Shown: piece after piece, positions 6,641 through 53,498 of the stretch
Layout of the letters: every line of letters begins with the position of its first letter
Numbering within the stretch: the stretch's first letter is position 1
Source of the DNA: a virus
IMG/VR virus record: IMGVR_UViG_3300029791_000448
Location: 1 to 64,000 of that record
Length of the DNA: 64,000 nt
Strand: one strand, 5' to 3'
Notes under the pieces: generated by a model
Told to the model about the DNA's origin: nothing
Database searches by the model: none
What the model saw: the letters and a program-made list of their open reading frames with translations, nothing else
Made by a program: the position numbers and the translations under genes

Positions 6641-6652
6641 TGTCTCCTTCCA

Positions 6653-8953: not shown

Positions 8954-8987
8954 AATCTGCTCCTTTCTTCCAGCCTTGCAACTGGTC

Positions 8988-37974: not shown

Positions 37975-39600
37975 TCAAAAAACGATCATGTCACGTTCGT
38001 CGTAGACGCTTCCCTGCTGCTGTCCTTCATTTCGGATACAGCGATCCAGTGCCATGATTGCAGCGACGATACCATCGATCTTCTCCGGCGACTTCGCCTT
38101 TGTCGGCTTGATGTTGCCAGCCGGATCAGTATCCACGACCACATTCCCCGCCATCCATGCCATGACCGGGTTGCCGCCGTGGATGATCCCGCCTTCCATC
38201 AGGAGCTTGTAAAACTCCTTAGTAGGCGGGCTCATATCTTTGAAGCCTTGACCGAAAGGAATGACTGTGAAGCCCATCCCCTCAAGGTTCTGGGTCATCT
38301 GCACCGCTCCCCATCGGTCAAAGGCAATCTCTAAAATGTGATAGGTCTTGCCCAGTTCTTCGATGACCTTTTCGATAAATCCGTAATGGATAACATTGCC
38401 TTCTGTCGCCATCAGGTAGCCCTGCTGGTACCAGACATCATACGGAACGGATGCCCTGCGCACACGCTGGGGGATCGTATCCTCCGGAATCCAGAAGAAT
38501 GGAAGCATGATGTACTTCTCCTCTGGAACTCTGGGCGGGAACATCAGCACAAAAGCCGTAATGTCTCCGGTGCTGGACAAGTCCAGTCCGCCATAACAAT
38601 CACGGCCTTTAAGGGCTTCCAGGTCGATTGGCTGGTTGCCGAGGTTGTAGATGTGTTCCGGGATGAATCTCGTCAGCGAGGACACCCACATATTCAGACG
38701 GAGCTGCTTGAATACATTCTCCTCTGCCGGGTTATCAAGTGCTTCCTGGTACGCATCCCGGACACGCTGAATCTGGATGGTCTGGCCCAATGAGGGATTT
38801 GCCTTATACCAGTTCGCTTCATCGTGCCAGTCATCCTCATCCGTCAGGCCATAGACCACGGGGTAGAAAGTGTGGTCGATCTTACGTCCGGCCAACAGGT
38901 CAAGTGCCTTCATGTGGAGCTCGTAACAGATGCTCTCTTTGTCCGTGCCGGCCGTGGTGATTAAAAAGAACAGAGGCTGTTCACGGGCATCACCGGAACC
39001 TTTGGTAAGGACATCGTAGAGTTTTCGGTTTGGCTGGGCATGAACCTCATCCAGAACAAGACCTGACACGTTCAAGCCGTGCTTCGTACCGACTTCCGCA
39101 GACAGAACTTGGTAGAATCCTGCGTTCCCGTAGTTCACGATTCGCTTCGTAGCTGCCATGATCTTGCACCGTTTCAAAAGTGCCGGGGTCATCTGCACCA
39201 TCTGATGGGCGACATCAAAGACAATGGATGCCTGCTGGCGGTCAGCTGCAGCACCATAGACTTCGGCAGAAGGCTCATTATCGGCAAAAAGCAGATACAG
39301 AGCCACCGCAGCGGCAAGCTCAGACTTGCCGTTTTTCTTACCGATTTCGACATAAGCCGTGCGGAACTGACGGTTTCCTCTCTCGTCCACGATGCCGAAC
39401 ACATCCCGGATGATCTGCTCCTGCCAAGGAAGCAGCCAGAACCGCTTGCCTGCCCATTTGCCTTTGGTATGGCGCAGGTTCTCAATAAAGGTCACCGCCC
39501 GGTCTGCTTTGGCGGCATCGTAGTGGCAGGTCGGAAGCATGAACCGGCTGGGTTTGTAGTCCTTCAGTTTCGGATAGTTTTTCGGTCTGCACTCTGCCAT
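37975..39600 (-). CDS. Terminase large subunit (Terminase_1 family), 541 aa
   Basis: ATPase Walker motifs (GKKNGKSE; LVLDEVH) and a C-terminal nuclease domain. Confidence 0.9.
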   Translation of the reverse strand: MAECRPKNYPKLKDYKPSRFMLPTCHYDAAKADRAVTFIENLRHTKGKWAGKRFWLLPWQEQIIRDVFGIVDERGNRQFRTAYVEIGKKNGKSELAAAVALYLLFADNEPSAEVYGAAADRQQASIVFDVAHQMVQMTPALLKRCKIMAATKRIVNYGNAGFYQVLSAEVGTKHGLNVSGLVLDEVHAQPNRKLYDVLTKGSGDAREQPLFFLITTAGTDKESICYELHMKALDLLAGRKIDHTFYPVVYGLTDEDDWHDEANWYKANPSLGQTIQIQRVRDAYQEALDNPAEENVFKQLRLNMWVSSLTRFIPEHIYNLGNQPIDLEALKGRDCYGGLDLSSTGDITAFVLMFPPRVPEEKYIMLPFFWIPEDTIPQRVRRASVPYDVWYQQGYLMATEGNVIHYGFIEKVIEELGKTYHILEIAFDRWGAVQMTQNLEGMGFTVIPFGQGFKDMSPPTKEFYKLLMEGGIIHGGNPVMAWMAGNVVVDTDPAGNIKPTKAKSPEKIDGIVAAIMALDRCIRNEGQQQGSVYDERDMIVF

Positions 39601-40079
39601 CAGCTTCCACCTCCTCCCAGCAGATTCTCCATTTCATCGGCTGCGTCCGCGGGACCGCCGTCCGAAGCAATGATCCGGCTTCGGGAGGACGGGGTCAGAC
39701 CGAACTGCTCTGCGAACTTGTTCATGATCTTCAGATAAGTCTGGGCGATAGATACCTGCGGCACTTGTTGCCAATACCCGGATGGGGTCTTGACGATGGT
39801 GCCATGCTGGGTGATGAACTCCTCCGCCTCTTTCCATCGGGCATACGCTTGACAATAACCGGCAAAGGCAGCCATATCTACTTCGGTCAGGATGCCGATG
39901 GCTTCCATCTGTTTGGCAAGTCTGCGCCATTCTTTCTTTGCTTCCGGCTCCAGCCACTTCGGACAGGCCGGTGCTTTCTTGTTGGGCTTCGGTTCACTGG
40001 TATTCAGCGGATGCTTGCCCGGATTGCCTTCCAGTTCCTTCATGGCGGTCGGCTTTGGTTTTCTGCCTCTGGTAGCCAT
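39600..40079 (-). CDS. Terminase small subunit (P27 family), about 159 aa
   Basis: Start MATRGRKPKP at 40079. N-terminal basic DNA-binding region. Overlaps the TerL start. Confidence 0.75.
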   Translation of the reverse strand: MATRGRKPKPTAMKELEGNPGKHPLNTSEPKPNKKAPACPKWLEPEAKKEWRRLAKQMEAIGILTEVDMAAFAGYCQAYARWKEAEEFITQHGTIVKTPSGYWQQVPQVSIAQTYLKIMNKFAEQFGLTPSSRSRIIASDGGPADAADEMENLLGGGGS

Positions 40080-40105
40080 TGGCTTCCCCTCCCTTCTGCA
40101 AAAAT

Positions 40106-40140
40106 GGGTAAAGAAAAAGGACCTCCGAAGAAGTCCTTGA
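40106..40140 (-). terminator. Putative terminator separating the accessory array from the late operon
   Basis: Minus-strand hairpin AAGGACUUCUUCGGAGGUCCUU followed by UUUUCUUU, just upstream of the terminase small-subunit RBS. Confidence 0.4.
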
Positions 40141-40270
40141 AATATCATTTTCCCAAACGGGAAACTTTTCCGTATGAATAGTAAATAGTTTCCCATTTCG
40201 GCAATTTTATATAAAACACATCAGATACGAGGCACAGCCCCTTTTCGGGGCGTGTACCTTTTGGGTGCTG

Positions 40271-40648
40271 TTATGCGTTGGGGTTGGCTTCCTTCCAAGC
40301 CTCGTATTCATCGACCAGCTCCGCTTCCTCGATGACCTGCCAGACGCTGCAGAAGCGGCTTCTTTGCTGCTCGATCTCCGCTGCTGTCCAGTCTTCCGGC
40401 TTGCGGCTCATGTCGTGGTAGGCATCCATCTCCGCTTTCGTCCGGAAGAAAAGGATCTGCTTCAGCTTCAGCGTTTCCTCGTTGTTCCGCAGGCTGTACC
40501 GCCTGTCCTCTGCCGCCCTGCAAAGGCTTCCGAGGTCGTTGCAGCTGAGGGTCATGTCCTGCTTGAAGGCGATCTCGATGCCGATTAGCTTCTTCTCGGT
40601 GTCGGCTTCCTGAATGTTCTTAAGGTAGGTTTTTGCTTTGTTCGTCAT
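40271..40648 (-). CDS. Hypothetical protein, about 125 aa
   Basis: Start MTNKAKTYLK directly after a copy of the promoter/UTR repeat and its GGAGGA RBS. Confidence 0.5.
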   Translation of the reverse strand: MTNKAKTYLKNIQEADTEKKLIGIEIAFKQDMTLSCNDLGSLCRAAEDRRYSLRNNEETLKLKQILFFRTKAEMDAYHDMSRKPEDWTAAEIEQQRSRFCSVWQVIEEAELVDEYEAWKEANPNA

Positions 40649-40654
40649 GGTCTG

Positions 40655-40755
40655 TATCCTCCGTGTGTTTTGTTTTCCGTAGGGCTTTCCCCTTCGTTGT
40701 GACTGTATATTACCGTCACTGCCGGATACTATCAAGCGGCTATGCTGCACGATCA
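40655..40755 (-). repeat. Promoter/5'UTR repeat copy 1 (minus-strand TTGATA-17-TAATAT, then ACCGAAAGGG...GGAGGA RBS)
   Basis: Plus-strand core ..CCCTTCG..GACTGTATATTACCGTCAC..CTATCAAGCGGCTA..CACGATC. Confidence 0.6.
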
Positions 40756-40847
40756 TACACACCTCTTTTTGTCGGATTTATGTGTATTTCCATACTGAAA
40801 GAATCCGCCACTACGAGCAAAAGCTCCCGAAGGAGCTCTGCCCTTTT

Positions 40848-41132
40848 TCAGTGTGCGTTCCTGATGCACCACTCGATTGCGTGACCAGCATCCGTGTAGG
40901 TCTCATCGGAAATCTTCAGAAGTTCCAGCCGGCACTCAATCGGTGACCAGCCTTCCTCCGGATCTTCCACAAAGCCGTATACCGCTCCCTCCAGCATGCC
41001 GTTCCAGTTCATCTGGGCAACCAGAACCCGGTCACCGAACTGCATGATGCTGTCGTAGCAAGGTCTGAGTCGGTCGTAGAAGCTCTCGATGCTGATGTTG
41101 TTTTCCGGGAAGTCGATCAAATGCTTTTTCAT
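40848..41132 (-). CDS. Hypothetical protein, 94 aa
   Basis: ORF preceded by a promoter-repeat copy and RBS. Confidence 0.5.
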   Translation of the reverse strand: MKKHLIDFPENNISIESFYDRLRPCYDSIMQFGDRVLVAQMNWNGMLEGAVYGFVEDPEEGWSPIECRLELLKISDETYTDAGHAIEWCIRNAH

Positions 41133-41149
41133 GGTGAATTCCTCCGTGT

Positions 41150-41245
41150 TTTCGTTTTTTCCTTGGGGCTTTTCCCTTTCGGTATGTGCATATTACCGTC
41201 AGGTGCAAAGGATAGCAAGCAGCTAAAGTACACGATCTTCCGTCT
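41150..41245 (-). repeat. Promoter/5'UTR repeat copy 2
   Basis: TTTCCCTTTCGGTATGTGCATATTACCGTCAGGTGC...GATAGCAAGCAGCTAAAGTACACGATC. Confidence 0.6.
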
Positions 41246-41267
41246 GGAATACCAAGCAGAATGTACA

Positions 41268-41474
41268 TCACTCTGCATCCTGCTCCATGAGTTCCACAAT
41301 GGTGTCGTAGAAGAACTGCGGGTCATATGCCAGCGGTTCCCGTCCGGCTTCCTTATCCATCCTGATCTGGTCTTCCACCATATCCTCGGCATCCTCCAGC
41401 GTGAAGGCATCCTTATCGCTGTCATCCATGTGGTTGTAGATTTCCACGATGACATCCATCATCCGCTCTTCCAT
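41268..41474 (-). CDS. Small acidic protein, about 68 aa
   Basis: Start MEERMMDV. Acidic, D/E-rich. Confidence 0.45.
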   Translation of the reverse strand: MEERMMDVIVEIYNHMDDSDKDAFTLEDAEDMVEDQIRMDKEAGREPLAYDPQFFYDTIVELMEQDAE

Positions 41475-41601
41475 GTGCTTCTCCTTTCTGGCGCATCCAC
41501 GCCGCCACATCTTCCCCTGTGCGGGGCGTTGTCGGTTCATTCGGACGTTTTGCCACCCGTGGCACAAGCCCCTGTGTGGGGCTGTGTCGGGGGCTGCTGG
41601 T

Positions 41602-41793
41602 TTATCTGGTCATCCGTCCCAGCAGGTAGGCTTCCTCCATTGCTTTTTGGATGCCCCAGACCGGAACCTCAATGAAGTCCTCGCTGTCATTGTCGCGGGC
41701 TTCGAGGTCGCCCCGGCTGTCTACCGCTGCCATCAGGCGCTTGGCGATCTCCAGCAGGGCTTTTTCCTCTTCCTTGGTGATGTTCTTCTTCAT
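41602..41793 (-). CDS. Hypothetical small protein, 63 aa
   Basis: Preceded by promoter-repeat copy 3 and an RBS. Confidence 0.45.
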   Translation of the reverse strand: MKKNITKEEEKALLEIAKRLMAAVDSRGDLEARDNDSEDFIEVPVWGIQKAMEEAYLLGRMTR

Positions 41794-41799
41794 AGTGGT

Positions 41800-41880
41800 T
41801 TCCTCCGTTTTTCTTGGTTTTCCCTTTCGGTATGTGCATATTACCGTCTATGTCACACACTATCAAGCGGCTATACTACA
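41800..41880 (-). repeat. Promoter/5'UTR repeat copy 3
   Basis: TTTTCCCTTTCGGTATGTGCATATTACCGTCTATG...CTATCAAGCGGCTATACTACAC. Confidence 0.6.
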
Positions 41881-41963
41881 CAAATATGTTCCCCCGGAAC
41901 TGTGCGTATTACGGCAGAAGAAAAGGGCCGCCGTTTCCGGCAAGCCCCATGTGTTTCTCTGGC

Positions 41964-42413
41964 TTAGTAGTCTTCGTCGTCCTCGTAATCTTCCTCTTCG
42001 TCCCAGTCATCTTCCTCTTCATCCCAGCTGTCATCCTGGTCTTCTTCCTCATCTTTGAAGTCCCACATATCTTCAGTCGGCTGGTTTCTAAGGTCTGGGT
42101 TCTGCTCGACATAGTCGGCAACCGCTCCGCAAAGGATGTCCAGGACCTTTTCGTAGGCTTCCTCGCTGTAGACTGCCCAGGCATCTGCAGTCAGCTTTGC
42201 GATTTTGTCGTTGCCCTTGACTCCAAGGAACCGCCCTGCAGGGTTGCAGGTTTCCTTGCCATAGCCGATGCCCAGCTGGTCGCCGTCGTTGTAAAAGCGG
42301 TATCCGATGCGGCTCATTGCCCTTACCAGCTCCCCTGCGAGGCTGCCTGCCTTGCCCGTCTCCGGTACCAGTTCCTTGAAAAGTTTATTGATGCGTTCTT
42401 CGTTCTTCGTCAT
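41964..42413 (-). CDS. Protein with extremely acidic C-terminal tail (DEEEDQDDSWDEEEDDWDEEEDYEDDEDY), about 149 aa
   Basis: Start MTKNEERINKL after repeat copy 4. The tail is DNA-mimic-like in composition. Confidence 0.5.
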   Translation of the reverse strand: MTKNEERINKLFKELVPETGKAGSLAGELVRAMSRIGYRFYNDGDQLGIGYGKETCNPAGRFLGVKGNDKIAKLTADAWAVYSEEAYEKVLDILCGAVADYVEQNPDLRNQPTEDMWDFKDEEEDQDDSWDEEEDDWDEEEDYEDDEDY

Positions 42414-42424
42414 TGTCGTATCCT

Positions 42425-42505
42425 CCGTTTTTGTTGTTTTTCCCTTTCGGTGACTGTATATTACCGTCACCTCGGAGCACTATCAAGCGGCTAAACTACA
42501 CGATC
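42425..42505 (-). repeat. Promoter/5'UTR repeat copy 4
   Basis: TTTTTCCCTTTCGGTGACTGTATATTACCGTCACCTCGGAGCACTATCAAGCGGCTAAACTACACGATC. GTGAC..GTCAC inverted repeat around the -10 box. Confidence 0.6.
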
Positions 42506-42615
42506 ATTCAATCCTGTAATTGTCATATTTATGTGCTTTTCATGCCAGCTTTCGGAAGACAGACACGAGCAAAAGGCTGGTCATTTCCAGCCCCTTGCGC
42601 CTGTCGGTCTTGCCT

Positions 42616-42876
42616 TTAGCGGATGATTTCAAGGTAGCTTACGTTGCCCCAGCAGTCCGTTCCCTTGAAGCGGATGCGATTTTCGTTCTCCCTGTCGAGG
42701 GTGAATTTCCGCAGGTGCTTCATCTTCTGGATGCGGTTCAGAAGGTCCTTGCCGTTCTTCGCATCCTCAACGGCATCCCTGATCTCGACCACCGCGCTGT
42801 CGCTTCCGTACCAGAGGTTGCTGAGTGCCTCTGGGATTCCGTTCGCAAGGTAAAGGTTGATTTTTGTGTAGATCAT
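42616..42876 (-). CDS. Hypothetical protein, 86 aa
   Basis: Intact ORF co-oriented with the 42892..43098 gene. Confidence 0.45.
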   Translation of the reverse strand: MIYTKINLYLANGIPEALSNLWYGSDSAVVEIRDAVEDAKNGKDLLNRIQKMKHLRKFTLDRENENRIRFKGTDCWGNVSYLEIIR

Positions 42877-42891
42877 TGTATTTTCCTCCTC

Positions 42892-43098
42892 TCAAAATGT
42901 CATCGTTTCCAGAATCTCATCCGTGGCTGTCTCCCAGTCGTGGCGGCTAAGTTCGATTTTGCTGTACATCTCTGCACTGTCTGGCTCATCGAAAAGCCGG
43001 AAGCATTCTCTTGCCAGCTCCTCGCTTGTGTGCTGCTGGATTTCATCTGGCTGTCCATCCAGCCGTGTAAAGGTGATTTCGTAAGTGTAGCGTTCCAT
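42892..43098 (-). CDS. Hypothetical small acidic protein, 68 aa
   Basis: Directly downstream of promoter-repeat copy 5. Confidence 0.45.
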   Translation of the reverse strand: MERYTYEITFTRLDGQPDEIQQHTSEELARECFRLFDEPDSAEMYSKIELSRHDWETATDEILETMTF

Positions 43099-43099
43099 G

Positions 43100-43180
43100 T
43101 TCTTTGCCCCTTTCGTTTTGGTAGCTGTATATTACCGTCACTGCCGGATACTATCAAGCGGCTAAACTACACGATCATCT
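43100..43180 (-). repeat. Promoter/5'UTR repeat copy 5
   Basis: CCCCTTTCGTTTTGGTAGCTGTATATTACCGTCACTGCCGGATACTATCAAGCGGCTAAACTACACGATC. Confidence 0.6.
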
Positions 43181-43237
43181 GCACCCTGATCTGGTGGATT
43201 TATGTGTTTATCCGGGGAGGTTTCCCTCCCCATTTTC

Positions 43238-43414
43238 TTAGCTGAACATCTCTGCTGTGTCATCGTCGATCCAAAGGTGCATGCCGTCTGCTTCCATGAT
43301 CGCGTGGTCTTCATGAACCTCGGTGATGATTCCTTCCCGGCTTCCGCTTCCATCGAATTCGTTCCAGTGCCATGTTGTCTTTCTCCCTTTTTTCCATGTT
43401 CTCCAATCAGCCAT
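43238..43414 (-). CDS. Hypothetical small protein, about 58 aa
   Basis: Start MADWRTWKKGRK after promoter-repeat copy 6. Confidence 0.4.
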   Translation of the reverse strand: MADWRTWKKGRKTTWHWNEFDGSGSREGIITEVHEDHAIMEADGMHLWIDDDTAEMFS

Positions 43415-43419
43415 TCTGC

Positions 43420-43500
43420 TGTCCTCCTTTGCTTTTTGTAGCTGTATATTACCGTCACCGCCCTGTGATAGCAAGGCCATAAAACGTCATATTATCAACG
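43420..43500 (-). repeat. Promoter/5'UTR repeat copy 6 (variant B: TTGCTA -35)
   Basis: TGTAGCTGTATATTACCGTCACCGCCCTGTGATAGCAAGGCCAT. Confidence 0.55.
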
Positions 43501-43623
43501 ATCTTTGCCCCTCATGTTTGGTACATATATGACCCCTGATTGACTTGCTATATATGTGTTTCTGCGGCATTATACACACAACGAAAGCAAAGAAAACCAA
43601 ACCAAAAACGGAGGACAAAAACC

Positions 43624-43875
43624 ATGAAAAAGACCATTACAGAAGTTGAAACCGCAATCGAAAACCGCATCGCAGAGCTTGAAGAAGAATACGAGCTGGA
43701 CATTTACGACCGCAACGACATCCGGGAAGAAGAATACCAGAAAGCCGGATGGCGACACGACCCTTTCCCAGAGGAGCTTGAGGAAGAGGACGAAGAAGAG
43801 GAAGAGGATTGGCACTACCACAGTATGGAGGAACGACTGAACGAGGTCGGCATGAGCATGAGGGATTTCTTCTAA
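43624..43875 (+). CDS. Small highly acidic protein (EELEEEDEEEEEDW), 83 aa
   Basis: ATG with AACGGAGGA RBS. The only plus-strand gene in the accessory array. Followed by hairpin CCCCAGC..GCTGGGG at about 43893..43910. Confidence 0.55.
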   Translation: MKKTITEVETAIENRIAELEEEYELDIYDRNDIREEEYQKAGWRHDPFPEELEEEDEEEEEDWHYHSMEERLNEVGMSMRDFF

Positions 43876-43989
43876 GGAATCCCCCAGAGGCTCCCCAGCG
43901 GAGGCTGGGGCTCTGCCTCGTATCCCCGGTTTTGGTTTGGTATGATACACAAAACCGCTGCCAGATGTTTGTGTACATTATGGCGGCGG

Positions 43990-44030
43990 TTCTCCTTGCT
44001 ATCGTTGCTTTCCAGAGGTAATATACAGTA
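43990..44030 (+). repeat. Inverted copy of the promoter repeat, giving a plus-strand TTGCTA-17-TAATAT promoter
   Basis: TTGCTA at 43996..44001 and TAATAT at 44019..44024, with ..GGTAATATACAG.. This is the reverse orientation relative to all other copies. Confidence 0.5.
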
Positions 44031-44036
44031 AACTGG

Positions 44037-44326
44037 AAGGGGGTTCTCATTCTTTTGAGGCTCCCATTTTCCGTCTAATCGGCTTCGCCCCGTATTGCCT
44101 GATGCATCACCCTGCGGTTATGCGCTCTGGCTTTCTTTTTCAGGTCCCTTTTCCATCTGCGGATGGTCACCGCCTTGCAGTGATTTCTCGACCATTCGTA
44201 TTCATCCAGAATGTATCTGCCGCTGTGTTCCCTCTCGCCATAAGCAGGCATCTTTCTGTGTCCCATAAGCTCCTCCTGTTAAACCAAGCCCTCCCGGTCT
44301 TTTCTGACCGAGAGGGTATTTTTTCT
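44037..44326 (+). ncRNA. Putative cis-antisense RNA (~290 nt) covering the minus-strand 44075..44266 gene
   Basis: Bounded by the plus-strand promoter at 43996..44024 and a plus-strand intrinsic terminator at 44289..44326 (CCCTCCCGG-N10-CCGAGAGGG plus TATTTTTTCT). No plus-strand RBS or plausible ORF. Confidence 0.35.
44075..44266 (-). CDS. Small protein with strongly basic C-terminal half, 63 aa
   Basis: Strong GGAGGAG RBS. The tail RRWKRDLKKKARAHNRRVMHQAIRG is highly basic. Fully overlapped by the predicted antisense transcript. Confidence 0.45.
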   Translation of the reverse strand: MGHRKMPAYGEREHSGRYILDEYEWSRNHCKAVTIRRWKRDLKKKARAHNRRVMHQAIRGEAD

Positions 44327-44338
44327 AATTGCAGTATC

Positions 44339-44710
44339 TTATTCCGGCTTCGTTCCATCATCCATCTGGATGACTGCCATCTGCCCAAACATGCTGACGA
44401 ATGCCTCCGGCACCCAGAACCGTTCCCTGAATTTCCGGATGAGGTCCTGGGGCAGCTCTGCGAAATCTTCCTCTCCCAGTCCACAGATGAAGAAGTTTCC
44501 CTTGATGGGCTGCTCCAGCTCCGGGATGTACCTGCTGAATGACTTCTCGGTGAACAGCCCATTGTCATCGGTGACCAGGGCAGCGCGTTCTTCCCACGGG
44601 TATGTGGCTGTGATGCAGTCGCAGTCGAGGATGCGGTAGAACTCTTTCAGGGAGTTTTCAATGTCCACCACCTGCGGATGCTCCATCGGTTTGATCAGAA
44701 GGACTTTCAT
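44339..44710 (-). CDS. DUF3846-like protein, about 123 aa
   Basis: Start MKVLLIKPMEHPQVVDIENSLKEF, the typical DUF3846 opening. Overlaps the upstream gene by ATGA. Confidence 0.55.
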   Translation of the reverse strand: MKVLLIKPMEHPQVVDIENSLKEFYRILDCDCITATYPWEERAALVTDDNGLFTEKSFSRYIPELEQPIKGNFFICGLGEEDFAELPQDLIRKFRERFWVPEAFVSMFGQMAVIQMDDGTKPE

Positions 44711-45174
44711 TCGACCCAGCCCCCTTTTACGATTGCCCAGTCTGCAAGCTGCATCTTCTGCTGTCCACCCCATGCAATGTCCTCTAACGCTTCCTCCGTT
44801 CCGCAGCGGTTGCAGATCTGGATGTCTGCCCTTCGGCTGAGTGCCTGCTGCTGATGGTCGTAGCAGTCGGGCTTTGCTCCGCACCTGGGGCAACGTGGGC
44901 CGGTCTGTCGCGTTTTACCAAGGCGGTCGAGCGACACCTTGACCTCGGCATCCGTTGCCACACGGTGGCAACTGTCCGCACCGTAGGCAACGTTCAGATG
45001 GCTTCCGGTATCCCAGCTCACTAAGATGTTTCCGGCATCATCGACCCCGTTGCAGGTTCCCTGCGTTCCGATGGACGGTGCCTGCCTGTCATCCATCTCA
45101 TCGAGGACGATCCGGCATCCGACCGGGAACTCTTTTCTCAACTTCTTGACCGTTTTCTGATCTGCGAAATTCAT
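44707..45174 (-). CDS. DUF4314 domain protein with C-terminal Cys-rich (zinc-ribbon-like) region, about 155 aa
   Basis: LRKEFPVGCRIVLDEMDD...GTCNGVDDAGNILVSWDTGSHLNVAYG core, then CPRCG...CNRCG motifs. Confidence 0.6.
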   Translation of the reverse strand: MNFADQKTVKKLRKEFPVGCRIVLDEMDDRQAPSIGTQGTCNGVDDAGNILVSWDTGSHLNVAYGADSCHRVATDAEVKVSLDRLGKTRQTGPRCPRCGAKPDCYDHQQQALSRRADIQICNRCGTEEALEDIAWGGQQKMQLADWAIVKGGWVE

Positions 45175-45650
45175 GCCTGCGCCTCCTCGATCATCTTCTG
45201 GGCGGCATCTTTGTCCATGCATTCCTTCAGCGCACCTTCGAGGATGTGCATCGGGAAGCGGAATGCCTTGTAGCCGTCATGCAGGACTTTGTAGTAATAC
45301 CGGCTCGGTGCGCGGTGTCCGAAGTCGTTCTCCATAATGTAAACCATTGCGGTCACCATCTCCGGATCTGTCCCTTCCCGGAGCAGTTCAATGTTCAGGT
45401 CTTCCTTGCGGTAGTAGTTCGGGTAGCCCTCATAGAGGTCGAGGTTTCCTTCGTCCCTTTCCGAGATCTCCCACACCAGAACCGGCGTGTTCTTCTTCGG
45501 GTTCGGTGCGATGGTAGCGCAGCCGCGGAACAAAAGCTCCCAGCCGGCCAGCACCGCCTGTCCTGCAATTTTTGCATCAGGACACCGGTATGCCATCTGC
45601 TCCACCGACAGGTTGCTGCCGTAGGCGATGTAATATTTCTTGTTCTTCAT
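45171..45650 (-). CDS. Gamma-glutamyl cyclotransferase-like (AIG2/GGCT fold) protein 1, about 159 aa
   Basis: N-terminal YYIAYGSNL...RCP signature of the GGCT/AIG2-like fold. Start MKNKKYY. Confidence 0.7.
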   Translation of the reverse strand: MKNKKYYIAYGSNLSVEQMAYRCPDAKIAGQAVLAGWELLFRGCATIAPNPKKNTPVLVWEISERDEGNLDLYEGYPNYYRKEDLNIELLREGTDPEMVTAMVYIMENDFGHRAPSRYYYKVLHDGYKAFRFPMHILEGALKECMDKDAAQKMIEEAQA

Positions 45651-45780
45651 TTGAATCTCTCCCTTCGGTTTTCTCCGCTCTTGTCTTGCGGTATGGTATA
45701 TATCACTCTTCTGCCCTGATTTATCAAGGCCTATGAGCATCATATACTGCACAATGTTTTTTGCTTTTGATCGTGTATTC

Positions 45781-46311
45781 TTACATCATCTGCTGCTTCT
45801 TCAGATACCGGATGGCTTCTGCCCTTCCGATACTGGCTGCCAGTCCACGCTTCAGTGTGTCCAGCGGAAATTCCCAGTCGCTGTATCCGCCACGCAGCAG
45901 TTCAAAATACTCGGCATCCGGGCAGCCAAGCTGTCTGTCCTCGTGCATCACATAGGCCATGCAGTTCTTCGGCTTCTTCATGCGGTTGCCGTTCATGTTC
46001 CAGATGGGAAGCTGGAACTGCTTTTTGTAGTAGTACCGTGGGAAGCCCTCGTACCGGTCCAGCAAAAGTTCATCATATTCTGAGAGTTTCCAAACCACGG
46101 CCGGTACACTTTCGTTGGCATCCTGCTCGATGGTTGCGTAGCTTCCGGTCTTGCTCTTCTTGAACAAAAGCCGATAGCCGTAAATCTCGGTCACACCGAC
46201 TGGCACTGCGTAGGGGCATCTCCGCCCCATCCGTTCCATGTCGAGGTTACTTCCGTAGGCAAGGTAGAACTTCGATGGTGTCCGGCTGATGAGTTCAAAC
46301 CGTTCATTCAT
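45781..46311 (-). CDS. Gamma-glutamyl cyclotransferase-like (AIG2/GGCT fold) protein 2, about 176 aa
   Basis: FYLAYGSNLDMERMGRRCP signature. Paralog of the preceding gene. Confidence 0.7.
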   Translation of the reverse strand: MNERFELISRTPSKFYLAYGSNLDMERMGRRCPYAVPVGVTEIYGYRLLFKKSKTGSYATIEQDANESVPAVVWKLSEYDELLLDRYEGFPRYYYKKQFQLPIWNMNGNRMKKPKNCMAYVMHEDRQLGCPDAEYFELLRGGYSDWEFPLDTLKRGLAASIGRAEAIRYLKKQQMM

Positions 46312-46540
46312 CCAAACCACCGTCCTCCCTGCCCGTGAATTCCACGCCTTGAAAATCTTCTGTTCCCAGCTCAATCTGGCTGTCCTGCCACCAGTCCTCT
46401 GCCACACGCTGGGCTTCCTCGACGGTCGGCTCTTTCATTTCGGATTCGTAAACTGTGATGGTTCTCTGGTAGGTTTCAGTGATGGTCACCTTAAAGGCTC
46501 TGCCACCCGGTGTGTTTTCATTTTTTAACGTGCTTTTCAT
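46304..46540 (-). CDS. DpnD/PcfM-like small protein, 78 aa
   Basis: KVTITETYQRTITVYESEMKEPTVEEAQRVAEDWW...GVEFTG matches the PcfM/DpnD-like pattern of conjugative-element and phage accessory regions. Confidence 0.55.
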   Translation of the reverse strand: MKSTLKNENTPGGRAFKVTITETYQRTITVYESEMKEPTVEEAQRVAEDWWQDSQIELGTEDFQGVEFTGREDGGLDE

Positions 46541-46607
46541 AAACCTGCACCTCCTTCTACCACCTCAAGGGCGGTTGCCCGCCCAAAAGGTGCCCGTGCA
46601 TCCCAGC

Positions 46608-47546
46608 TTATTTGTTCCGCCAGGATGCGTTGCCCTCCATGTTCCGCAGAAGGATCTCCCTTGCCGTTGCAAATTCATCCCCGATGAATCCCAGCCTCAG
46701 CATCCAGCACCGCATCGCGTACTTTTCGTTGTCGGTCTGCTGGGGCTTCGGGCTTGCCGTTCTGACCATCTTGGCAAGCTGGCTCATTGCGAGGCAAAGC
46801 TGGATGTAGGCTTTCATCTCACCGGCATGCAGTCCATTGCGCTTTCCGTCCGCTGGGTCTGCGAATTGGAAAAGGCGGAATTCAATGGTTCCCTTTGTGA
46901 AGGTGGCATGGAGGTTCAGCATATGGTACCGGCTTGAATTGTAGTGGGCATTTCGGTTTTCCCAGCTGGAACCGTTGCCTTCGTACCAAATGTCTTCCAG
47001 CTTGCGCATGGTGGTCGGCTTCTCGCGGTTCAGCCGGTCGAGGAAGCGGTGGTTGACCACCTGGCAATATTGTCCGGTGCGCCCTGCATCGATTCGGATG
47101 GCTCTGCCGATCTGCTGTTCGTGCGCCGCCATGATATTCACAAGGTTGCGGATGGTCTTTGCGGTGTGGTCGCCTTTGCCGATGTGGATGTGAACCCCGC
47201 ATCCGCGGCTTGGGCCGCTCTTTGCGCCTGCCTTTCGGAGCAGTCGGATAATCTCCTGCAGGGTTTCGATGTCGTCGTAGGTGAGGATCGGGGTGACCAG
47301 TTCGCATTTTTCTGCGTCCGGTCCGTAGATGCTCACATCCCTCTGGAATTTCCAAACCCTGCCCTGTCCATCCTTGCAAGCCCAGCTGTAATATCCGTAC
47401 TCGCTGGCCGCGTTCCATGCTCTGGTTCCGAAGTACTCGGCGACCTTTCTTGCCGCTTTTTCTCTGGTGATGTTGTTCATCTCGATCTCAACCCCGATGG
47501 TCTGGTTCTTCATGGCTTCAATCTGCTCTCTTGTTTTATCGTTCAT
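46608..47546 (-). CDS. Amidoligase_2-family (putative ATP-dependent amidoligase) protein, about 312 aa
   Basis: Start MNDKTREQ after repeat copy 7. N-terminal TIGVEIEMNN motif and overall amidoligase organisation. Its C-terminal region is shared with the 47779..48963 protein. Confidence 0.65.
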   Translation of the reverse strand: MNDKTREQIEAMKNQTIGVEIEMNNITREKAARKVAEYFGTRAWNAASEYGYYSWACKDGQGRVWKFQRDVSIYGPDAEKCELVTPILTYDDIETLQEIIRLLRKAGAKSGPSRGCGVHIHIGKGDHTAKTIRNLVNIMAAHEQQIGRAIRIDAGRTGQYCQVVNHRFLDRLNREKPTTMRKLEDIWYEGNGSSWENRNAHYNSSRYHMLNLHATFTKGTIEFRLFQFADPADGKRNGLHAGEMKAYIQLCLAMSQLAKMVRTASPKPQQTDNEKYAMRCWMLRLGFIGDEFATAREILLRNMEGNASWRNK

Positions 47547-47549
47547 GGT

Positions 47550-47720
47550 ATGTTCTCCTTTGTTTTTTCCTTGTTTTCCCTTTCGGTATGTGCATATTAC
47601 CGTCAGGTGCGGATAATAGCAAGGATATAAAAGAACATATATTCGACAAATATAAGGCAGAATGATCGTGTACATTTCTGCAGTTTATCCGCTTGATAAT
47701 GTACATTTTCAGAGCTAATA
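47550..47720 (-). repeat. Promoter/5'UTR repeat copy 7 with an added oppositely oriented TTGATA-17-TAATAT box at 47691..47719
   Basis: TTTTCCCTTTCGGTATGTGCATATTACCGTCAGGTGC...ATAGCAAGG on the minus strand, then ..CCGCTTGATAATG..-17-..TAATAT on the plus strand. Confidence 0.55.
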
Positions 47721-47778
47721 TCGGTACAATGGAAGAGGGTCTCGCATATTTTCCGGCCCCCATTGGGGGATTGGGAGC

Positions 47779-48963
47779 TTACGCTCCCACCTCCAGCATC
47801 TGCGCCGTGTCTGCCCCACAGTCGGGCTGTGTCGGCCGGGTCGTATCCGGTGCGACCGTTTCCCCTGTGGCAGGATCGCCGTTCTGTGCCGCCAGTTTCG
47901 CGGCTTTCAGGGCATCCCGTTTTGCCTTTTCCCTTGCAAGGAACTTCTGTGCTTCCTCATCCGTGCGGAAAGCCGCATGGCCGGAAAGGTTCTCCATGAG
48001 GATCTTGCGTGTCTCTTTGAAATCCGGACCGTTCATCCCCAGCCGCAGGAGCCATGTGCGGAGTGCGTATTTCTCATTCTCATCGTTGACATCCTTTGCC
48101 TGGATGCGCTTCTGGCTGATAGCCTGCTGGTTCATCAGCACCGCCAGCTGTGCAAAAGCCGTCAGATGTTCGTGGTCCGGTGCAGTCGGGAAGCCGGTAA
48201 AGGTGACCTTCTCGGTGGTGATTTTCAGGCCTTCCAGTGCAGCACCATGTTCAGTCTCATAGTCGCTGACCGCATTGATGAAGTTCATGATGGCAAAGGT
48301 GCAGCTATCGTCCTTCAGCTTCTCGACCAGCCCCTCTTCCACATGGAAGTGTCCTCCAGTCGCCTTGCCGATGAGCTTGCCGCGGCTGTAAAGAAGGTTG
48401 ACCAGGTTGCGGAGAGTCACACCGTTGTGCTGGCTGACCGGGAATGCAAGTTCCAAGTCCAGCGGCACCTCTTCCGGCTGATCTTCTGTCTCCTGCGATT
48501 CTGCATCCGGCTCATCCTCTATGGTATCATCCTCAGCCGTATTGTCCGGCTCCAATGCATCCTCGGCTCCTGCTTCCGCAGGTTCATCTTCTGCGGTATC
48601 TGCATCTTCGGATTCCTGCTCGTCCAGAACCTCCAGCTCTGCTTCGGGCATCTGCTCAGTTTCCGCTTCGGTCACAGGCTCCTCATCCATATCCGCTGTC
48701 AGCTCTGTGTCCTCCGGCTGGTCATCCGTGCTCTCAATACTCTCGCCGCCGCGGATCAGTCCCTCATTCAGCAGGGTCGTCAGCAGCTCGGCATCTGCAT
48801 TCTCCGGCTCGACCAGAAGGTTGCCATTCCGGTCGATGGTGTAGCTCCCGATGTCGTAAGAATACAGAGGTGCTTTGGTATAGTAAGGGTGGATGCCGGT
48901 CAGCTCCTCCATGCGTTTTGCGAGGGTCTTTCTCTCGGCTACGTTCAGTTTAAATTTCAACAT
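47779..48963 (-). CDS. Acidic protein with poly-D/E/T/A central region and a C-terminal domain homologous to the amidoligase C-terminus, 394 aa
   Basis: Central ~140-aa D/E-rich tract. C-terminal NEKYALRTWLLRLGMNGPDFKETRKILMENLSG parallels NEKYAMRCWMLRLGFIGDEFATAREILLRNMEG of the amidoligase. Confidence 0.6.
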   Translation of the reverse strand: MLKFKLNVAERKTLAKRMEELTGIHPYYTKAPLYSYDIGSYTIDRNGNLLVEPENADAELLTTLLNEGLIRGGESIESTDDQPEDTELTADMDEEPVTEAETEQMPEAELEVLDEQESEDADTAEDEPAEAGAEDALEPDNTAEDDTIEDEPDAESQETEDQPEEVPLDLELAFPVSQHNGVTLRNLVNLLYSRGKLIGKATGGHFHVEEGLVEKLKDDSCTFAIMNFINAVSDYETEHGAALEGLKITTEKVTFTGFPTAPDHEHLTAFAQLAVLMNQQAISQKRIQAKDVNDENEKYALRTWLLRLGMNGPDFKETRKILMENLSGHAAFRTDEEAQKFLAREKAKRDALKAAKLAAQNGDPATGETVAPDTTRPTQPDCGADTAQMLEVGA

Positions 48964-48964
48964 A

Positions 48965-49065
48965 ATTCATCGCTCCTTTTCGTTCATTTGTTTTTGTGCA
49001 TCCCGATGTTCTTTTCGGTAGCACATATATCACTCTAAAACGGATGAATAGCAAGGCCATTTCCC
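48965..49065 (-). repeat. Promoter/5'UTR repeat copy 8 (variant B)
   Basis: ..TTTTCGGTAGCACATATATCACTCT...GAATAGCAAGGCCAT.. Confidence 0.5.
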
Positions 49066-49186
49066 GATATTCTTCATGTTCGACCATTTACACAAGGGAC
49101 CGCAAAATCTGTTGTGTAAATAGGACCAATATGTAAGCCCACCATATCAACAGGTCGCTTTCTACCTAGTAATATAGCGGGCCAGT

Positions 49187-51445
49187 TTATTCTTCCAGAC
49201 CTGCACACCACGCGATGCCGGCCAGAACAAAGAATGCGTTGGCTAAGCAAATGCCGTTGCCCCAGATACGGTACTCTGCCGAATCCGTATACGGGTCAGC
49301 CAGCCATTTCCGGATCTGCTTCTCCGTCTTCGGCTTCTTGGCATGGGTCACGATCTTACGGTGTGTTTCAAACACATCCGCCCAGAACGCCAGATCTTCC
49401 TCGGTTGGGTTTTCCGTTCCGAGATCTCTGCACCACCAGTCAGGGAATCCCTGCAGTCTGGCACACTCGGTCGGTGTCAAACGGCGGACGGTATAGGTCA
49501 CAGGTGCGGGCTGTGCTTCCGGATTGTCGATGACCAGACGGTCATTGAAGGCATCCTGCCCGTTGAAGCCGCTGGGATGTGCCCCGGTTGCCACGGTTCC
49601 CATGACACCCTCGTTCAGATGCGGCACCGGTGCGATAGTGGTTGGGTCTTTGTAATCCCGTGCCATCAGGGTCGGTGCGACTTCTTTTGCCACCTGCATA
49701 TAGGAGCCGGTGGTCATGGCATACACATCCTCCGGTGCGCAGATTGCATGGCGGTCAGTGGCATCCAGTGTAAAGCAGACATCCTCATTGACGCCATCCC
49801 CCTGCGGACCGTTCTCATCCTTGCGGCCGATCATGTTGCCCTGCAGGACGAAGGTCTGCATCTGGTCACTCCGGGTCGCCATCAAAGCGCCGGATTTGCC
49901 ATGCAGATCGATCAGCTCATTGCGCTGGTTCACATGGAACGCAGTCATCTCTTCCGGCTGTGCCACAAAGGTCTGCTGCTTCATCCCCGGCTCTGCTGCC
50001 AGTGCCGCTGACTTCTCTCCCAGATCCCTGACTTCATCCCTCTGATTCTGGGTAAAGGCGACCGGCTCTACCACACAGATGCCGCCCTGATTGCAGGTCG
50101 GGTCACCACCGCTGCGGTCCAGTGTCCGGGAGGTCTCCGCTTCATAGAAACCGCTATGCGGATTGTCGGACATCATGGAGTGGCTGGCTTTGGAGCAGAC
50201 ACCATAGCATTTCGGAACGAACAGTGTCTGGTCGTTATTGCAGCCGAGGGTGGCCGACTTTTCTTCCTGCCAGATGGCTCCCTTGCCGCCGCCTTCACAC
50301 CCGGAACGGATCTTCAGTGTGACTGCCGGGGAGTTTTCAACTTCTTTCAGCGGACTTTCCACTGAATTTTCAACAGCGTTCATGACTATCGGGACATTAC
50401 CGCCACCCGTACCACACCTGCTTGTCAGTGTCTGCACCTTGCCATCCTCGGAAATCTTCACCCGGCTGTCTGCAGGATGGTTTTCCAAAGCGATAGCGGC
50501 AGGCACAACACCAGCCCGGAGGGTCGGTGACCGCTCTTCCTCATATCCGATGCTTCTGGCATCTGCCGAATGCTCGGTACAGAAACCAGCGGCTTCCAGG
50601 ACACACGGCTGATGCCCATGCTCCTCTGCCCGGAGGGTTCCGGTCACATCCTGGGAAACATCCATCTGCTTACCGCCCTGGTCGTTCAGACAGATCCGTC
50701 CTCCTGCTCCGCTGAAGCCTGCCTCTCCAGTGCCGCTTTCAGCACCGGCGGCAGCTCTTTGCCACGCACGGAAGCCCTCCGCAGAATACCGAGACACGCC
50801 TTCGGACTCAAATAGTACCTTTGGGGCACTCTGGTCTGCAAAATCTGCGACAAGGTAGATACGTTTTCTTCTTTGGGGAACGCCCCACCATTGTGCATCA
50901 AGAACTCGATACGCGACGCTCCATCCGTCTCCCACGTAATAGTCAGCGTCGGGCCATCCTTTCTTCTCAGGCGCAGGCACCGAGGCGGCCGGTTCTTTAA
51001 CACCGATGACTGCTTCGAGGACTGCTTTGAAGTCCTGTCCTTTGTTTGAGGAGAAGGCCCCTGGCACATTCTCCCACACGATAAATCTTGGTTTTTCTCC
51101 ATTGGTCTTACACCTCATTTCCTTCACGATTCGGATTGCTTCGTAAAACAGGCTGGACCGTGAACCATCCAGACCGTCCCGCTTACCAGCGATGGACATA
51201 TCCTGACAGGGACTGCCAAAGGTGATGATGTCCACAGGCGGCAGGTCTGCACCGCTGATGGCGGACACATCTCCATAGTGCTTCACCTGCGGCAGACGCT
51301 TGGTCGTGACCCGGATGGCAAAGGGCTCGATCTCGCTGCTCCACACCGGAGTGATCTGCCCAGTCAAAAGACCGCCCAATGGAAAACCCCCGGAGCCATC
51401 AAAGAGGCTGCCGAGGGTCAAAGTCTTATTCTGTTCTGTGCTCAT
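49187..51445 (-). CDS. DNA (cytosine-5)-methyltransferase with very long variable/target-recognition region, 752 aa
   Basis: Motif I FDGSGG, PCQ motif GSPCQDMSIAG, ENV motif WENVPG, and C-terminal TVRRLTPTECARLQGFP. About 450 aa lie between motifs VIII and IX. Confidence 0.85.
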   Translation of the reverse strand: MSTEQNKTLTLGSLFDGSGGFPLGGLLTGQITPVWSSEIEPFAIRVTTKRLPQVKHYGDVSAISGADLPPVDIITFGSPCQDMSIAGKRDGLDGSRSSLFYEAIRIVKEMRCKTNGEKPRFIVWENVPGAFSSNKGQDFKAVLEAVIGVKEPAASVPAPEKKGWPDADYYVGDGWSVAYRVLDAQWWGVPQRRKRIYLVADFADQSAPKVLFESEGVSRYSAEGFRAWQRAAAGAESGTGEAGFSGAGGRICLNDQGGKQMDVSQDVTGTLRAEEHGHQPCVLEAAGFCTEHSADARSIGYEEERSPTLRAGVVPAAIALENHPADSRVKISEDGKVQTLTSRCGTGGGNVPIVMNAVENSVESPLKEVENSPAVTLKIRSGCEGGGKGAIWQEEKSATLGCNNDQTLFVPKCYGVCSKASHSMMSDNPHSGFYEAETSRTLDRSGGDPTCNQGGICVVEPVAFTQNQRDEVRDLGEKSAALAAEPGMKQQTFVAQPEEMTAFHVNQRNELIDLHGKSGALMATRSDQMQTFVLQGNMIGRKDENGPQGDGVNEDVCFTLDATDRHAICAPEDVYAMTTGSYMQVAKEVAPTLMARDYKDPTTIAPVPHLNEGVMGTVATGAHPSGFNGQDAFNDRLVIDNPEAQPAPVTYTVRRLTPTECARLQGFPDWWCRDLGTENPTEEDLAFWADVFETHRKIVTHAKKPKTEKQIRKWLADPYTDSAEYRIWGNGICLANAFFVLAGIAWCAGLEE

Positions 51446-52215
51446 GCGGAAGCCTCCTCTCCGAGCATCTGCTCATTCGCTTTCCGGTAAAAATCTCTGG
51501 ATACTTCAAATCCGTAACTGTTGCGCCCCAGTTCCCGTGCAGCACGAAGAGTCGAGCCGCTGCCGGCGCAGGGGTCAATGACCACATCGCCCTCATCTGT
51601 AAAGGTCTCGATCAGTCGTTTCAGCACAGAGATCGGTTTCTGGGAGGGATGGATCTTCGGATACTCCTTGCCGTCCCTCTTCCAGTCAAACCAGTTGAAG
51701 ATCATGTGGGGCTTTCCATCCTCACCGAGATTGCGGAACTTCGGGAGCTTGCCCCGGTACAGCACCAATGCATACTCCGTTGCACCTACGATCTTCATGT
51801 TGGCCTTTAAGACCTGCGGACTGTAGTTCTTGCAGAACACCAGCGGGATATAATTTTTGAAGCCGTATTTTTCCGCTTCGGTGATTACCTTCGGGATCTG
51901 CTGGAACGCACAGAACACGATCATGCACGGCGCATCCTTCTCGCCCGTGCCGGGTTCTTTCTTCAGCAGGCGGTTGCAGAAGTGGAAATACTCTGCAATG
52001 TTGAACGTGAAGTCGGTATTGAACGCCGCCTTCCTCGCCTTTCTGCTCTCCCCGTTTTTGTTGTCGCCATCCACATACCAGTCCGGCCGGCTGGCGTAGA
52101 AGTCCGTACCGATGTTGTACGGAATATCTGCGATCACCAGCTGTGCCTTGGGGATGTTATAGGACTTGAAGTTCTGGAAGTTGTCGTGGATGAGGACGCA
52201 TTTCACATCAGGCAT
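51442..52215 (-). CDS. DNA methyltransferase (N6-adenine or N4-cytosine, beta class), 257 aa
   Basis: D/N-PPY-like motif IADIPYN near the N-terminus and SAM-binding IDPCAGSGST near the C-terminus. Confidence 0.8.
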   Translation of the reverse strand: MPDVKCVLIHDNFQNFKSYNIPKAQLVIADIPYNIGTDFYASRPDWYVDGDNKNGESRKARKAAFNTDFTFNIAEYFHFCNRLLKKEPGTGEKDAPCMIVFCAFQQIPKVITEAEKYGFKNYIPLVFCKNYSPQVLKANMKIVGATEYALVLYRGKLPKFRNLGEDGKPHMIFNWFDWKRDGKEYPKIHPSQKPISVLKRLIETFTDEGDVVIDPCAGSGSTLRAARELGRNSYGFEVSRDFYRKANEQMLGEEASA

Positions 52216-53476: not shown

Positions 53477-53498
53477 GTAGGCTCCTCCTAATTCAGAT

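Follow-up and report, generated by a model that had tools for sequence, protein, structure and literature searches.

Why would a phage place copies of one promoter-bearing sequence before a whole series of accessory genes, and what does the repeated sequence do for the genes that follow it? The question is raised by a 64,000-nucleotide (nt) stretch of viral DNA (IMG/VR record IMGVR_UViG_3300029791_000448, positions 1 to 64,000; hereafter the window), in which an accessory module of 17 genes, g1 to g17, is interspersed with a repeated non-coding unit. Comparison with related stretches establishes, at the level of sequence, the anatomy of this unit, its restriction to the module, its retention where the cargo proteins are 53-65% identical, and its use in crossovers. 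On balance we regard it as probable that the module as a whole is an array of self-contained cassettes sharing one regulatory unit, which would be read by sigma-A RNA polymerase and remodelled by recombination, its cargo possibly serving host takeover or counter-defence.

Alignment of every candidate copy places 12 units, lettered A to L, between 40646 and 49110. The nine on the minus strand precede start codons at 48963, 47546, 45650, 43414, 43098, 42413, 41793, 41132 and 40648, and the three on the plus strand have their -35 boxes at 43544, 43995 and 47692. The repetition is far above chance: GACGGTAATATRCA occurs in seven exact copies, every one of them minus-strand and within 40704-47604 (0.32 expected), and the pattern CTTGMTA-N17-TAATAT, allowing at most one mismatch, has 10 matches against 0.05 expected, nine of them in the region. 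Self-comparison recovers repeat families of 57-89 nt, in line with an earlier, sequence-only reading of this DNA, which had reported an array of at least nine promoter, leader and ribosome-binding-site repeats in two sequence classes. The repeats and the two classes are real and the count was an underestimate; likewise, the two copies it saw in the opposite orientation exist but are three in number, and one of them, unit G, heads a real plus-strand gene at 43624-43875. Neither a pattern search nor a position weight matrix built from relatives found a unit outside 40.7-49.1 kb in the window, and there is none in L103, a contig that carries a further 9.3 kb of the phage. Because no copy stands elsewhere in the window or in L103, this promoter type belongs to the module alone. 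The 12 units cover 10% of the region and have a mean pairwise identity of 50%; in both back-to-back pairs, J/K and F/G, the starts of the -35 boxes are 69 bp apart.

In a logo of 287 unique unit copies the conserved stretch runs from about -55 to about +50, counted from the -35 box, and measures about 105 bp rather than the roughly 90 bp first proposed. The -35 box is CT(T/G)G(A/C)TA, the spacer measures 16-17 bp, and the -10 box is TAATAT in most copies. Beyond the search pattern the informative positions are a G at -14 (2.0 bits), the GACGG before the -10 box, which ends the spacer in 7 of the 12 window copies, an A 7 nt after the -10 box and, following it, CCGAAAGGGAA. This A, invariably exactly 7 nt downstream of the -10 box, is where transcription would be expected to start, the predicted start positions being 49019/20, 47587, 45693, 43439, 43122, 42451, 41831, 41183 and 40700 on the minus strand and about 43580, 44031 and 47728 on the plus strand. 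The TTGATA-17-TAATAT sequence is a promoter pattern, as had been claimed, but to call it near-consensus was generous, since 8-9 of 12 consensus positions are matched, plus the G at -14. The leaders, 25-55 nt long and 69-79% purine, have a GGAGG-type Shine-Dalgarno (SD) sequence at their end and folding z-scores near 0, no better than those of shuffled sequence. Across relatives, an SD sequence and an open reading frame (ORF) come after 472 of 518 units, the median leader measuring 43 nt. Stable hairpins, some with a U-tract, occur after g2, g7, g9, g10, g12, g13, g14, g16 and g17, and these sit upstream of the next conserved unit, not inside it. Class 1 units carry GATCGTGTAGTTTAGCCG-CTTGATA and class 2 units ATATATG...CCTTGCTAT; units of the K/H type have a leader of their own, A.TGGAAG.GGG.TCTC.

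The upstream 55 bp, conserved from -55 to -1 in every unit, contain an imperfect dyad whose distal part is TRCACAWAT and whose proximal part is ATnnTYGTGTA. In the diverged relative L102 the dyad is an inverted repeat with arms of about 17 bp. Paralogous copies of this upstream element are 60% identical within L102 and 39% within the window, against 35% across lineages, which indicates homogenisation at the level of the lineage. In unit K and in class 3 units the motif is shifted by 10 bp, a displacement that keeps it on the same helical face. The dyad may serve as an operator, an activator site or an UP-like element, or it may have been left over from an ancestral unit that worked in both directions. 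The sequence-only reading had instead put forward a GTGAC/GTCAC inverted repeat around the -10 box as a possible operator; it is present in 2 of the 12 window units and in 53 of 216 unique units (25%) family-wide, and as a general operator it was rejected as a slot-specific accident.

The 28-specified-base core of the unit is found, exact, in 87 IMG/VR stretches and 15 GTDB genome stretches, the latter from Lachnospiraceae (Blautia, Acetatifactor, Wujia, C. fessum) and Oscillospiraceae/Ruminococcaceae (Lawsonibacter, Faecalibacterium). The TGGATA variant of the -35 box is found in at least 120 further stretches, and units are present in more than 200 viral or genomic stretches overall. Two diverged relatives, L088 and L102, are 65-70% identical to the window in nucleotide sequence, with cargo proteins 53-65% identical. 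In both, the array persists with its GACGGTAATAT core, its +1 A and its leader; the two back-to-back pairs are also kept, at a spacing of 71 bp, and the leader of unit K is unchanged. At the near end of the range the module is 94-95.5% identical in nucleotide sequence over 8-kb stretches from isolates (L089, L096, L099). Near-identical prophages lie in Blautia faecis DFI.3.66 and Clostridium fessum SNUG30386, both Lachnospiraceae, and in Faecalibacterium intestinale CLA-AA-H281 (Oscillospirales), and a near-identical module in such isolates implies either an unusually broad host distribution or contamination or misassignment.

If the units are also sites of exchange, relatives should differ at them. 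In about 100 loci the first genes behind the units belong to the same 12 or so families and stand in a fixed order, g1 > K (reversed) > g2 > g5 > H (reversed) > g9 (reversed) > g10 > g11 > g13 > g14 > g16 > g17, with close relatives differing only by slot-wise loss, insertion and replacement; this constancy rejects free shuffling among them. Orthologous units are 83% identical and paralogous units 50%, and hence there is no ongoing gene conversion; concerted evolution among the copies was rejected on the same figures, the upstream element alone being homogenised by lineage. Breakpoint mapping against the window yielded 34 event classes. In six of these, which reduce to about four independent events, both ends fall in units with overlapping homology. 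A J x I event removes g2-g4 as a block (L014), an F x D event removes g10-g12, 14 loci have lost g10 through an F x E event, and in L093 an inserted cassette of 552 bp is flanked by duplicated C units. Given that units make up 10% of the region, an event would have both breakpoints in units by chance about 1% of the time, so that four of 25 events have P=1.3e-4 and six of 34 have P=1.5e-6. In the remaining events, either the acidic tract of g1 has gained or lost sequence, or the content of a slot has been replaced between start codon and terminator. Judged by these breakpoints, the units are crossover sites for cassette deletion and insertion.

Distant relatives, in which TerS and TerL are still 72-89% identical, show more extensive change. 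In L176 (TerL 89%, TerS 84% identity) the array reads g9 (reversed) > n16 > g14 > n17 > n18 > g13 > n19 > g16 > n20 > g17, with five new cassette families and g14 now ahead of g13, and in L171 everything after g7 is replaced, g14 excepted; TerL identity spans 72-89% in these two loci. The cassette shuffling by recombination envisaged earlier is in this way borne out in its unit-bounded indels and in the new cassettes and new order of distant relatives, but not in the close ones, where order is fixed and change is slot-wise; an identical gene order free of cassette variation is not what the relatives present. The comparisons support a tempered role for the units as recombination substrates, with frequent unit-bounded gain and loss and rare reordering.

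Read in the direction of transcription, the array unfolds as follows, all features being on the minus strand unless marked (+) and family names being those of Pfam. Unit L (48961-49110), a class 2 copy with CTTGCTA-16 nt-TGATAT at 49055-49027, a leader, an SD sequence and an ATG at 48963, heads g1 (47779-48963), which encodes 394 amino acids (aa) with a net charge of -51 and an acidic linker, and which matches PHROG 2443. This linker is an indel hotspot among relatives (events 48742-48465 and 48662-48532). Unit K (47658-47728, (+)) is reversed, with CTTGATA-17-TAATAT at 47692-47721 and the leader ACAATGGAAGAGGG, kept in the diverged lineages; it aims at the 3' end of g1 and stands back-to-back with the class 2 unit J (47544-47657; promoter 47623-47594, predicted start A 47587, leader ACCGAAAGGGAAAAC, ATG 47546). 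J precedes the cassette at 45781-47546, comprising g2 (Amidoligase_2; 46608-47546), g3 (DpnD/PcfM) and g4 (GGACT). Unit I (45648-45783), class 2 with CTTGATA-16 nt-TGATAT at 45728-45700 and an ATG at 45650, is followed at 44075-45650 by g5 (GGACT), g6 (DUF4314), g7 (DUF3846), a hairpin at 44316-44289, and g8 (63 aa, isoelectric point 10.5). Unit H (43940-44031, (+)) is again reversed, with a K-type promoter at 43995-44024 aimed at the 3' end of g8 and no ORF of its own. Unit G, with CTTGCTA-17-CATTAT at 43544-43573, and its gene g9 (43624-43875; 83 aa, net charge -22) occupy 43510-43875 (+), back-to-back with unit F (promoter 43475-43446), which with g10 (58 aa) spans 43238-43509. Then follow unit E (43158-43129) with g11, g12 and a U-tract terminator hairpin (42616-43213); unit D (42487-42458) with g13, a protein of 149 aa with an acidic C-terminal tail and a net charge of -27, and a terminator (41964-42542); unit C (41867-41838) with g14 (DUF6900) and g15 (41268-41922); unit B (41219-41190) with g16 (Nmad4) and a terminator (40848-41274); and unit A (40736-40707) with g17 (125 aa) and a hairpin (40271-40791), after which TerS starts at 40196.

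The K/H-type promoters form a group apart. Both in the window (47692-47790 (+) and 43995-44075 (+)) are devoid of an ORF and directed into the 3' end of the upstream cassette, and counterparts exist in L102 (7159-7215 (+)), L171 (11680) and L176 (10967). The leader, together with a hairpin of the form GGG(G/T)C(C)-loop of 11-13 nt-GG(C)CCC, is kept at about 60% cargo identity, and in L102 the hairpin is followed by CGCTTTTCTTTT. A coding function for K-type units was rejected, the ATG not being conserved across lineages; their transcripts could be short antisense or convergent RNAs.

As to the cargo itself, the sequence-only reading had correctly named the amidoligase, the two GGACT proteins, the DpnD/PcfM protein and the acidic proteins. 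Nine of the 17 module genes fall in no Pfam family. No functional PHROG was found among 10 scanned genes, the sole PHROG match being that of g1, labelled amidoligase; it covers a non-catalytic part of the protein, and g1 and the amidoligase g2 have a common C-terminal domain (KYA.R.W.LRLG..G.EF...R.IL..N). Acidic proteins make up 13 of the 17, with net charges reaching -51 in g1, -27 in g13, -22 in g9 and -18 in g15, and the only basic module protein is g8, whose slot is variable. A sequence search of the PDB found no solved-structure relatives of the cargo. The possibility that the cargo consists of known defence proteins was rejected, none of it matching any of the 5027 defence models in PADLOC. 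The DUF3846 protein has one match, at 29% identity, to a gene annotated as ArdA. Neither Pfam nor PHROGs detected a DNA-binding domain in the module proteins, although small proteins can escape detection. The same amidoligase/GGCT trio has been described in a C. clostridioforme prophage, with the amidoligase listed under 'host metabolism, phage defence' (PMC11318856). The acidity of 13 proteins, the Pfam families and the lack of defence-model matches are consistent with an anti-defence or takeover role, which is plausible.

The closest precedent for the architecture is the PeSL element of T4-type phages, a composite unit of about 100 bp that combines a strong sigma-70 promoter, a stem-loop and an SD sequence before ORFans in hyperplastic regions. 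Sister phages differ at these units, the crossovers having taken place in the stretch from the -10 box to the SD sequence (Arbiol et al. 2010, PMC2839356; Comeau et al. 2014, PMC4122927). The likeness extends to repeated units of about 100 bp with a sigma-70-type promoter, a conserved upstream region and an SD-plus-ATG end, to a plastic region of small ORFans with hairpins that would insulate the cassettes, and to insertions, deletions and replacements at the units with crossovers in the promoter-to-SD interval. In contrast to PeSL, the array stands in a temperate, HK97-capsid, siphovirus-type prophage of Gram-positive anaerobes with serine integrases, and its sequence is unrelated; its hairpins close the preceding cassette at the 3' end instead of being embedded in the promoter, as in PeSL; and it adds a conserved initial transcribed sequence, an upstream dyad and fixed-spacing back-to-back pairs that include apparently non-coding antisense promoters. 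Demonstrated promoter and terminator activity and mini-circle formation also belong to the definition of PeSL. Given the different kind of phage and the unrelated sequence, the likeness is one of analogy. The array is a further example of the PeSL-like principle, not a new kind of system.

For the logic of control a second precedent is EGeRS2 of plasmid p576 (pLS20 family), in which variable establishment operons are preceded by diverged copies of a strong sigma-A promoter whose -35 box adjoins an operator, and a ribbon-helix-helix (RHH) repressor switch gives transient expression after entry (Val-Calvo et al. 2021, PMC8708921). The two arrays resemble each other in their diverged copies (50-68% identical in EGeRS2) of a strong sigma-A promoter before variable operons of mostly unknown-function or anti-restriction genes, in their residence in a mobile element of Firmicutes, in a conserved motif abutting the -35 box and in mosaic gene content. 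They differ in that EGeRS2 is carried by a conjugative plasmid in four copies and the present unit by a phage in 12, and in that the dual heptamer operator TTATCCCnnTTATCCC and an RHH repressor gene were not found here, with the proviso that small proteins can escape detection. By analogy, then, the array has the architecture and evolutionary behaviour of PeSL and possibly the control logic of EGeRS2. The promoter repeats go unmentioned in the papers on 'Candidatus Heliusviridae' (PMC9226167) and the C. clostridioforme prophage (PMC11318856), and the unit motif has no relevant match in the searchable literature.

Other repeated or modular phage elements are less similar. Morons, in the concept of Hendrix and Juhala, are autonomous promoter-gene-terminator units between phage genes (discussed in PMC2839356); they do not share flanking sequence, and their arrival is generally attributed to illegitimate recombination. 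In the present array, in contrast, one regulatory unit is common to all cassettes and is also the recombination substrate. The start-associated sequences (SAS) of Cluster K mycobacteriophages are translation-start-proximal motifs without -35/-10 anatomy, and the stoperators of Cluster A are 13-bp repressor sites dispersed over the genome. The likeness of both to the present unit lies in a short conserved non-coding sequence that stands in a dozen or more copies directly upstream of genes in one phage genome, and we know of no report of either as a site of cassette exchange.

From these comparisons a mechanism can be proposed. Each cassette, consisting of a unit of about 105 bp, one to four small genes and usually a hairpin, would be read by the host housekeeping sigma-A RNA polymerase with no need for a phage-specific sigma factor, and would thereby enjoy strong, autonomous and insulated expression wherever it is inserted. 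Homology between units would allow general recombination to add, delete and, over longer times, reorder cassettes while leaving their regulation intact. With less confidence, we suggest that the small acidic proteins and the amidoligase/GGCT set help to take over the host or to counter its defences shortly after the DNA has entered, and that the conserved upstream dyad lets one common regulator switch the whole set.

Several observations weigh against this account. The loci were retrieved by exact core matches, making the conservation of the core across loci partly a matter of construction; most relatives are close, with a median amino acid identity of 88-98%; and among close relatives the promoter in each slot is as conserved as the coding sequence and no more so. 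The hexamers agree with the sigma-A consensus at 8-9 of 12 positions, the TGG variants of the -35 box would be weak for sigma-A alone, and the activity, strength and timing of the promoters are predictions. The conservation of further positions beyond the needs of plain sigma-A, namely the C at -36, GACGG, the transcribed ACCGAAAGGG and the upstream dyad, hints at an additional factor, and some form of control is implied because twelve strong unregulated promoters would be costly in a prophage. With respect to the cargo, searches of the PDB, PHROGs, and plasmid and phage collections returned essentially nothing beyond the Pfam domains and no match to a characterised anti-defence protein.

The most probable of the alternatives is a repressor-gated establishment regulon resembling EGeRS2, in which a phage repressor bound to the dyad by the -35 box keeps the units off in the lysogen and lets them fire transiently on entry into a repressor-free cell or after induction. 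This would be a layer upon the proposed sigma-A-read cassette array rather than a replacement for it, and we hold it to be a tentative but real possibility. It would account for the conservation from -55 to -1, with both dyad motifs, in every unit, for the roughly 17-bp-arm inverted repeat of L102 homogenised within the lineage (0.60 vs 0.35 across lineages), and for the preserved helical face where the motif moves by 10 bp in unit K and class 3, and it has a precedent in the diverged promoter copies of p576 with operators abutting the -35 box (PMC8708921). Against it, no repressor candidate emerges; the module proteins have no DNA-binding Pfam domain and the single basic one, g8, sits in a variable slot. 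The dyad could instead be the relic of a bidirectional ancestor or an UP-like element. Two specific operators were tried and rejected: the module lacks the palindrome adjacent to the XRE gene in the early region, and the p576 Reg operator gives six matches at three mismatches against 4.5 expected, none of them at a promoter.

A bolder elaboration, which we offer as speculative and would rate a little lower, treats the units as an 'expression socket' with dedicated control, in which a factor reads the upstream dyad and/or the conserved 5' end of the transcript (A-CCGAAAGGG) and the short hairpin RNAs from the K/H antisense promoters gate the neighbouring cassettes. The result would be a portable, co-regulated counter-defence regulon in hundreds of gut phages across two orders of Clostridia.

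The promoter-gene-terminator anatomy of each cassette, insulated from the flanking lytic operons, is also what one would expect of a moron array expressed from the prophage in lysogeny for the benefit of the host, for example in superinfection exclusion or metabolism, and the annotation of the amidoligase under 'host metabolism, phage defence' (PMC11318856) points the same way. This alternative is unlikely, given that none of the 5027 defence models is matched, that small, highly acidic proteins together with DpnD/PcfM, DUF3846, DUF4314 and Nmad4, families of conjugative elements and phages, are more typical of takeover or counter-defence, and that the site between the replication and methylase genes and terS is typical of lytic-cycle genes.

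The promoters might instead depend on a phage-encoded factor. Just beyond the window, as the second gene of the early operon, lies a gene for a 251-aa protein with a sigma-region-4 helix-turn-helix (HTH) (TIGR02937, E=1e-14; Xpf-like PRK06930, E=3.5e-8), which could recognise or activate the promoters in place of host sigma-A alone, in the manner of a middle-gene regulon. It is present on 18 of the array-bearing contigs, and the invariant non-consensus features of the promoter (the C at -36, TA at -31/-30 and TAATAT) would suit such a factor. This protein, however, has no detectable region 2, and although it is otherwise conserved it varies most in its recognition helix, of which there are at least four variants, yet the -35 and -10 boxes on the same contigs are identical, and TTG and TGG types of -35 box coexist in one array. 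As a reader of the promoters it was rejected because its helix varies while the promoters stay constant, and the resulting regulon is distinctly improbable; on the same grounds, together with the mixture of TTG and TGG boxes in one array, the host housekeeping holoenzyme is favoured. The protein (L103 1096-1851; homologs L227-L270) combines a conserved 160-aa N-terminal domain with its hypervariable recognition helix, a pattern that resembles immunity-type specificity switching.

Finally, the two inverted back-to-back pairs (J/K and F/G) and cargo families common to conjugative elements, whose leading regions use single-stranded DNA (ssDNA) promoters (PMC11541004), might suggest Frpo-like ssDNA promoters or a structured cis-regulatory RNA leader, a notion with almost nothing to recommend it, since the folding of the two pairs as ssDNA shows no gain over shuffled sequence (z=-1.65 and +0.21), on which ground the Frpo-like candidate was rejected, and since the leaders are unstructured and purine-rich and no Rfam covariance model matches at E<=1 in 40200-49300, which disposes of a structured leader or riboswitch. 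The DNA of tailed phages, moreover, enters the cell double-stranded.

The cassette array sits at a constant place in its phage. Nearly the whole window belongs to a single siphovirus-type prophage read from the minus strand, with genes for primase/D5 helicase (56600-59029), S-adenosylmethionine (SAM) synthetase and an HNH protein, a methylase block at 49187-53572 (ParB-methylase, N6/N4 and C5 methylases), the promoter array, TerS (39600-40196), TerL, portal, ClpP protease, HK97 capsid, tape measure, tail and lysin, and then three large serine recombinases; in relatives the array likewise lies between the C5 methylase and TerS. The contig L103, 99.94% identical over 12 kb, supplies in its additional 9.3 kb the start of the early operon, with genes for an XRE-type HTH protein, the sigma-region-4 protein, DUF2800/PD-(D/E)XK, an Enc34-type single-stranded DNA-binding protein, PolA, DUF932 and SNF2. 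The gene set of the phage agrees with the published signature of 'Candidatus Heliusviridae' (PMC9226167). The palindrome mentioned above, AAATCTACAAATATGTAGATTT, is near-perfect and lies at L103 688-709, in the 470-bp intergenic region between the XRE and sigma-region-4 genes; it is absent from the window and is a candidate immunity operator.

Some further features were noted outside the array. The phage SAM synthetase gene is upstream of the three DNA methylases, and a protein with a PemK/MazF-like toxin domain adjoins the primase, both on the minus strand (covered by 55260-56327 and 59035-59715). At the prophage end, the three serine recombinases (610, 766 and 786 aa) stand in tandem orientation on the minus strand (1219-11348), accompanied by an AAA_25 ATPase and a PD-(D/E)XK transposase-like gene, and this cluster may represent nested or piggy-backing elements. 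A full-length drum RNA (RF02958, 91.9 bits, E=3e-16) at 11649-11760 (+), between the lysin gene and the first serine recombinase, adjoins a plus-strand ORF, and a sigma-A-like promoter at 11395-11424 (minus strand) lies ahead of this recombinase.

The array indicates that the PeSL principle, by which a repeated unit both expresses and moves accessory genes, is not peculiar to T4-like lytic phages and is also at work in a very widespread temperate phage family of human-gut Clostridia. The unit can serve as a sequence tag that marks accessory and counter-defence candidates in uncultured phages, delimits their cassettes and predicts their transcription starts, and the cultured isolates that carry near-identical prophages make these predictions directly testable.

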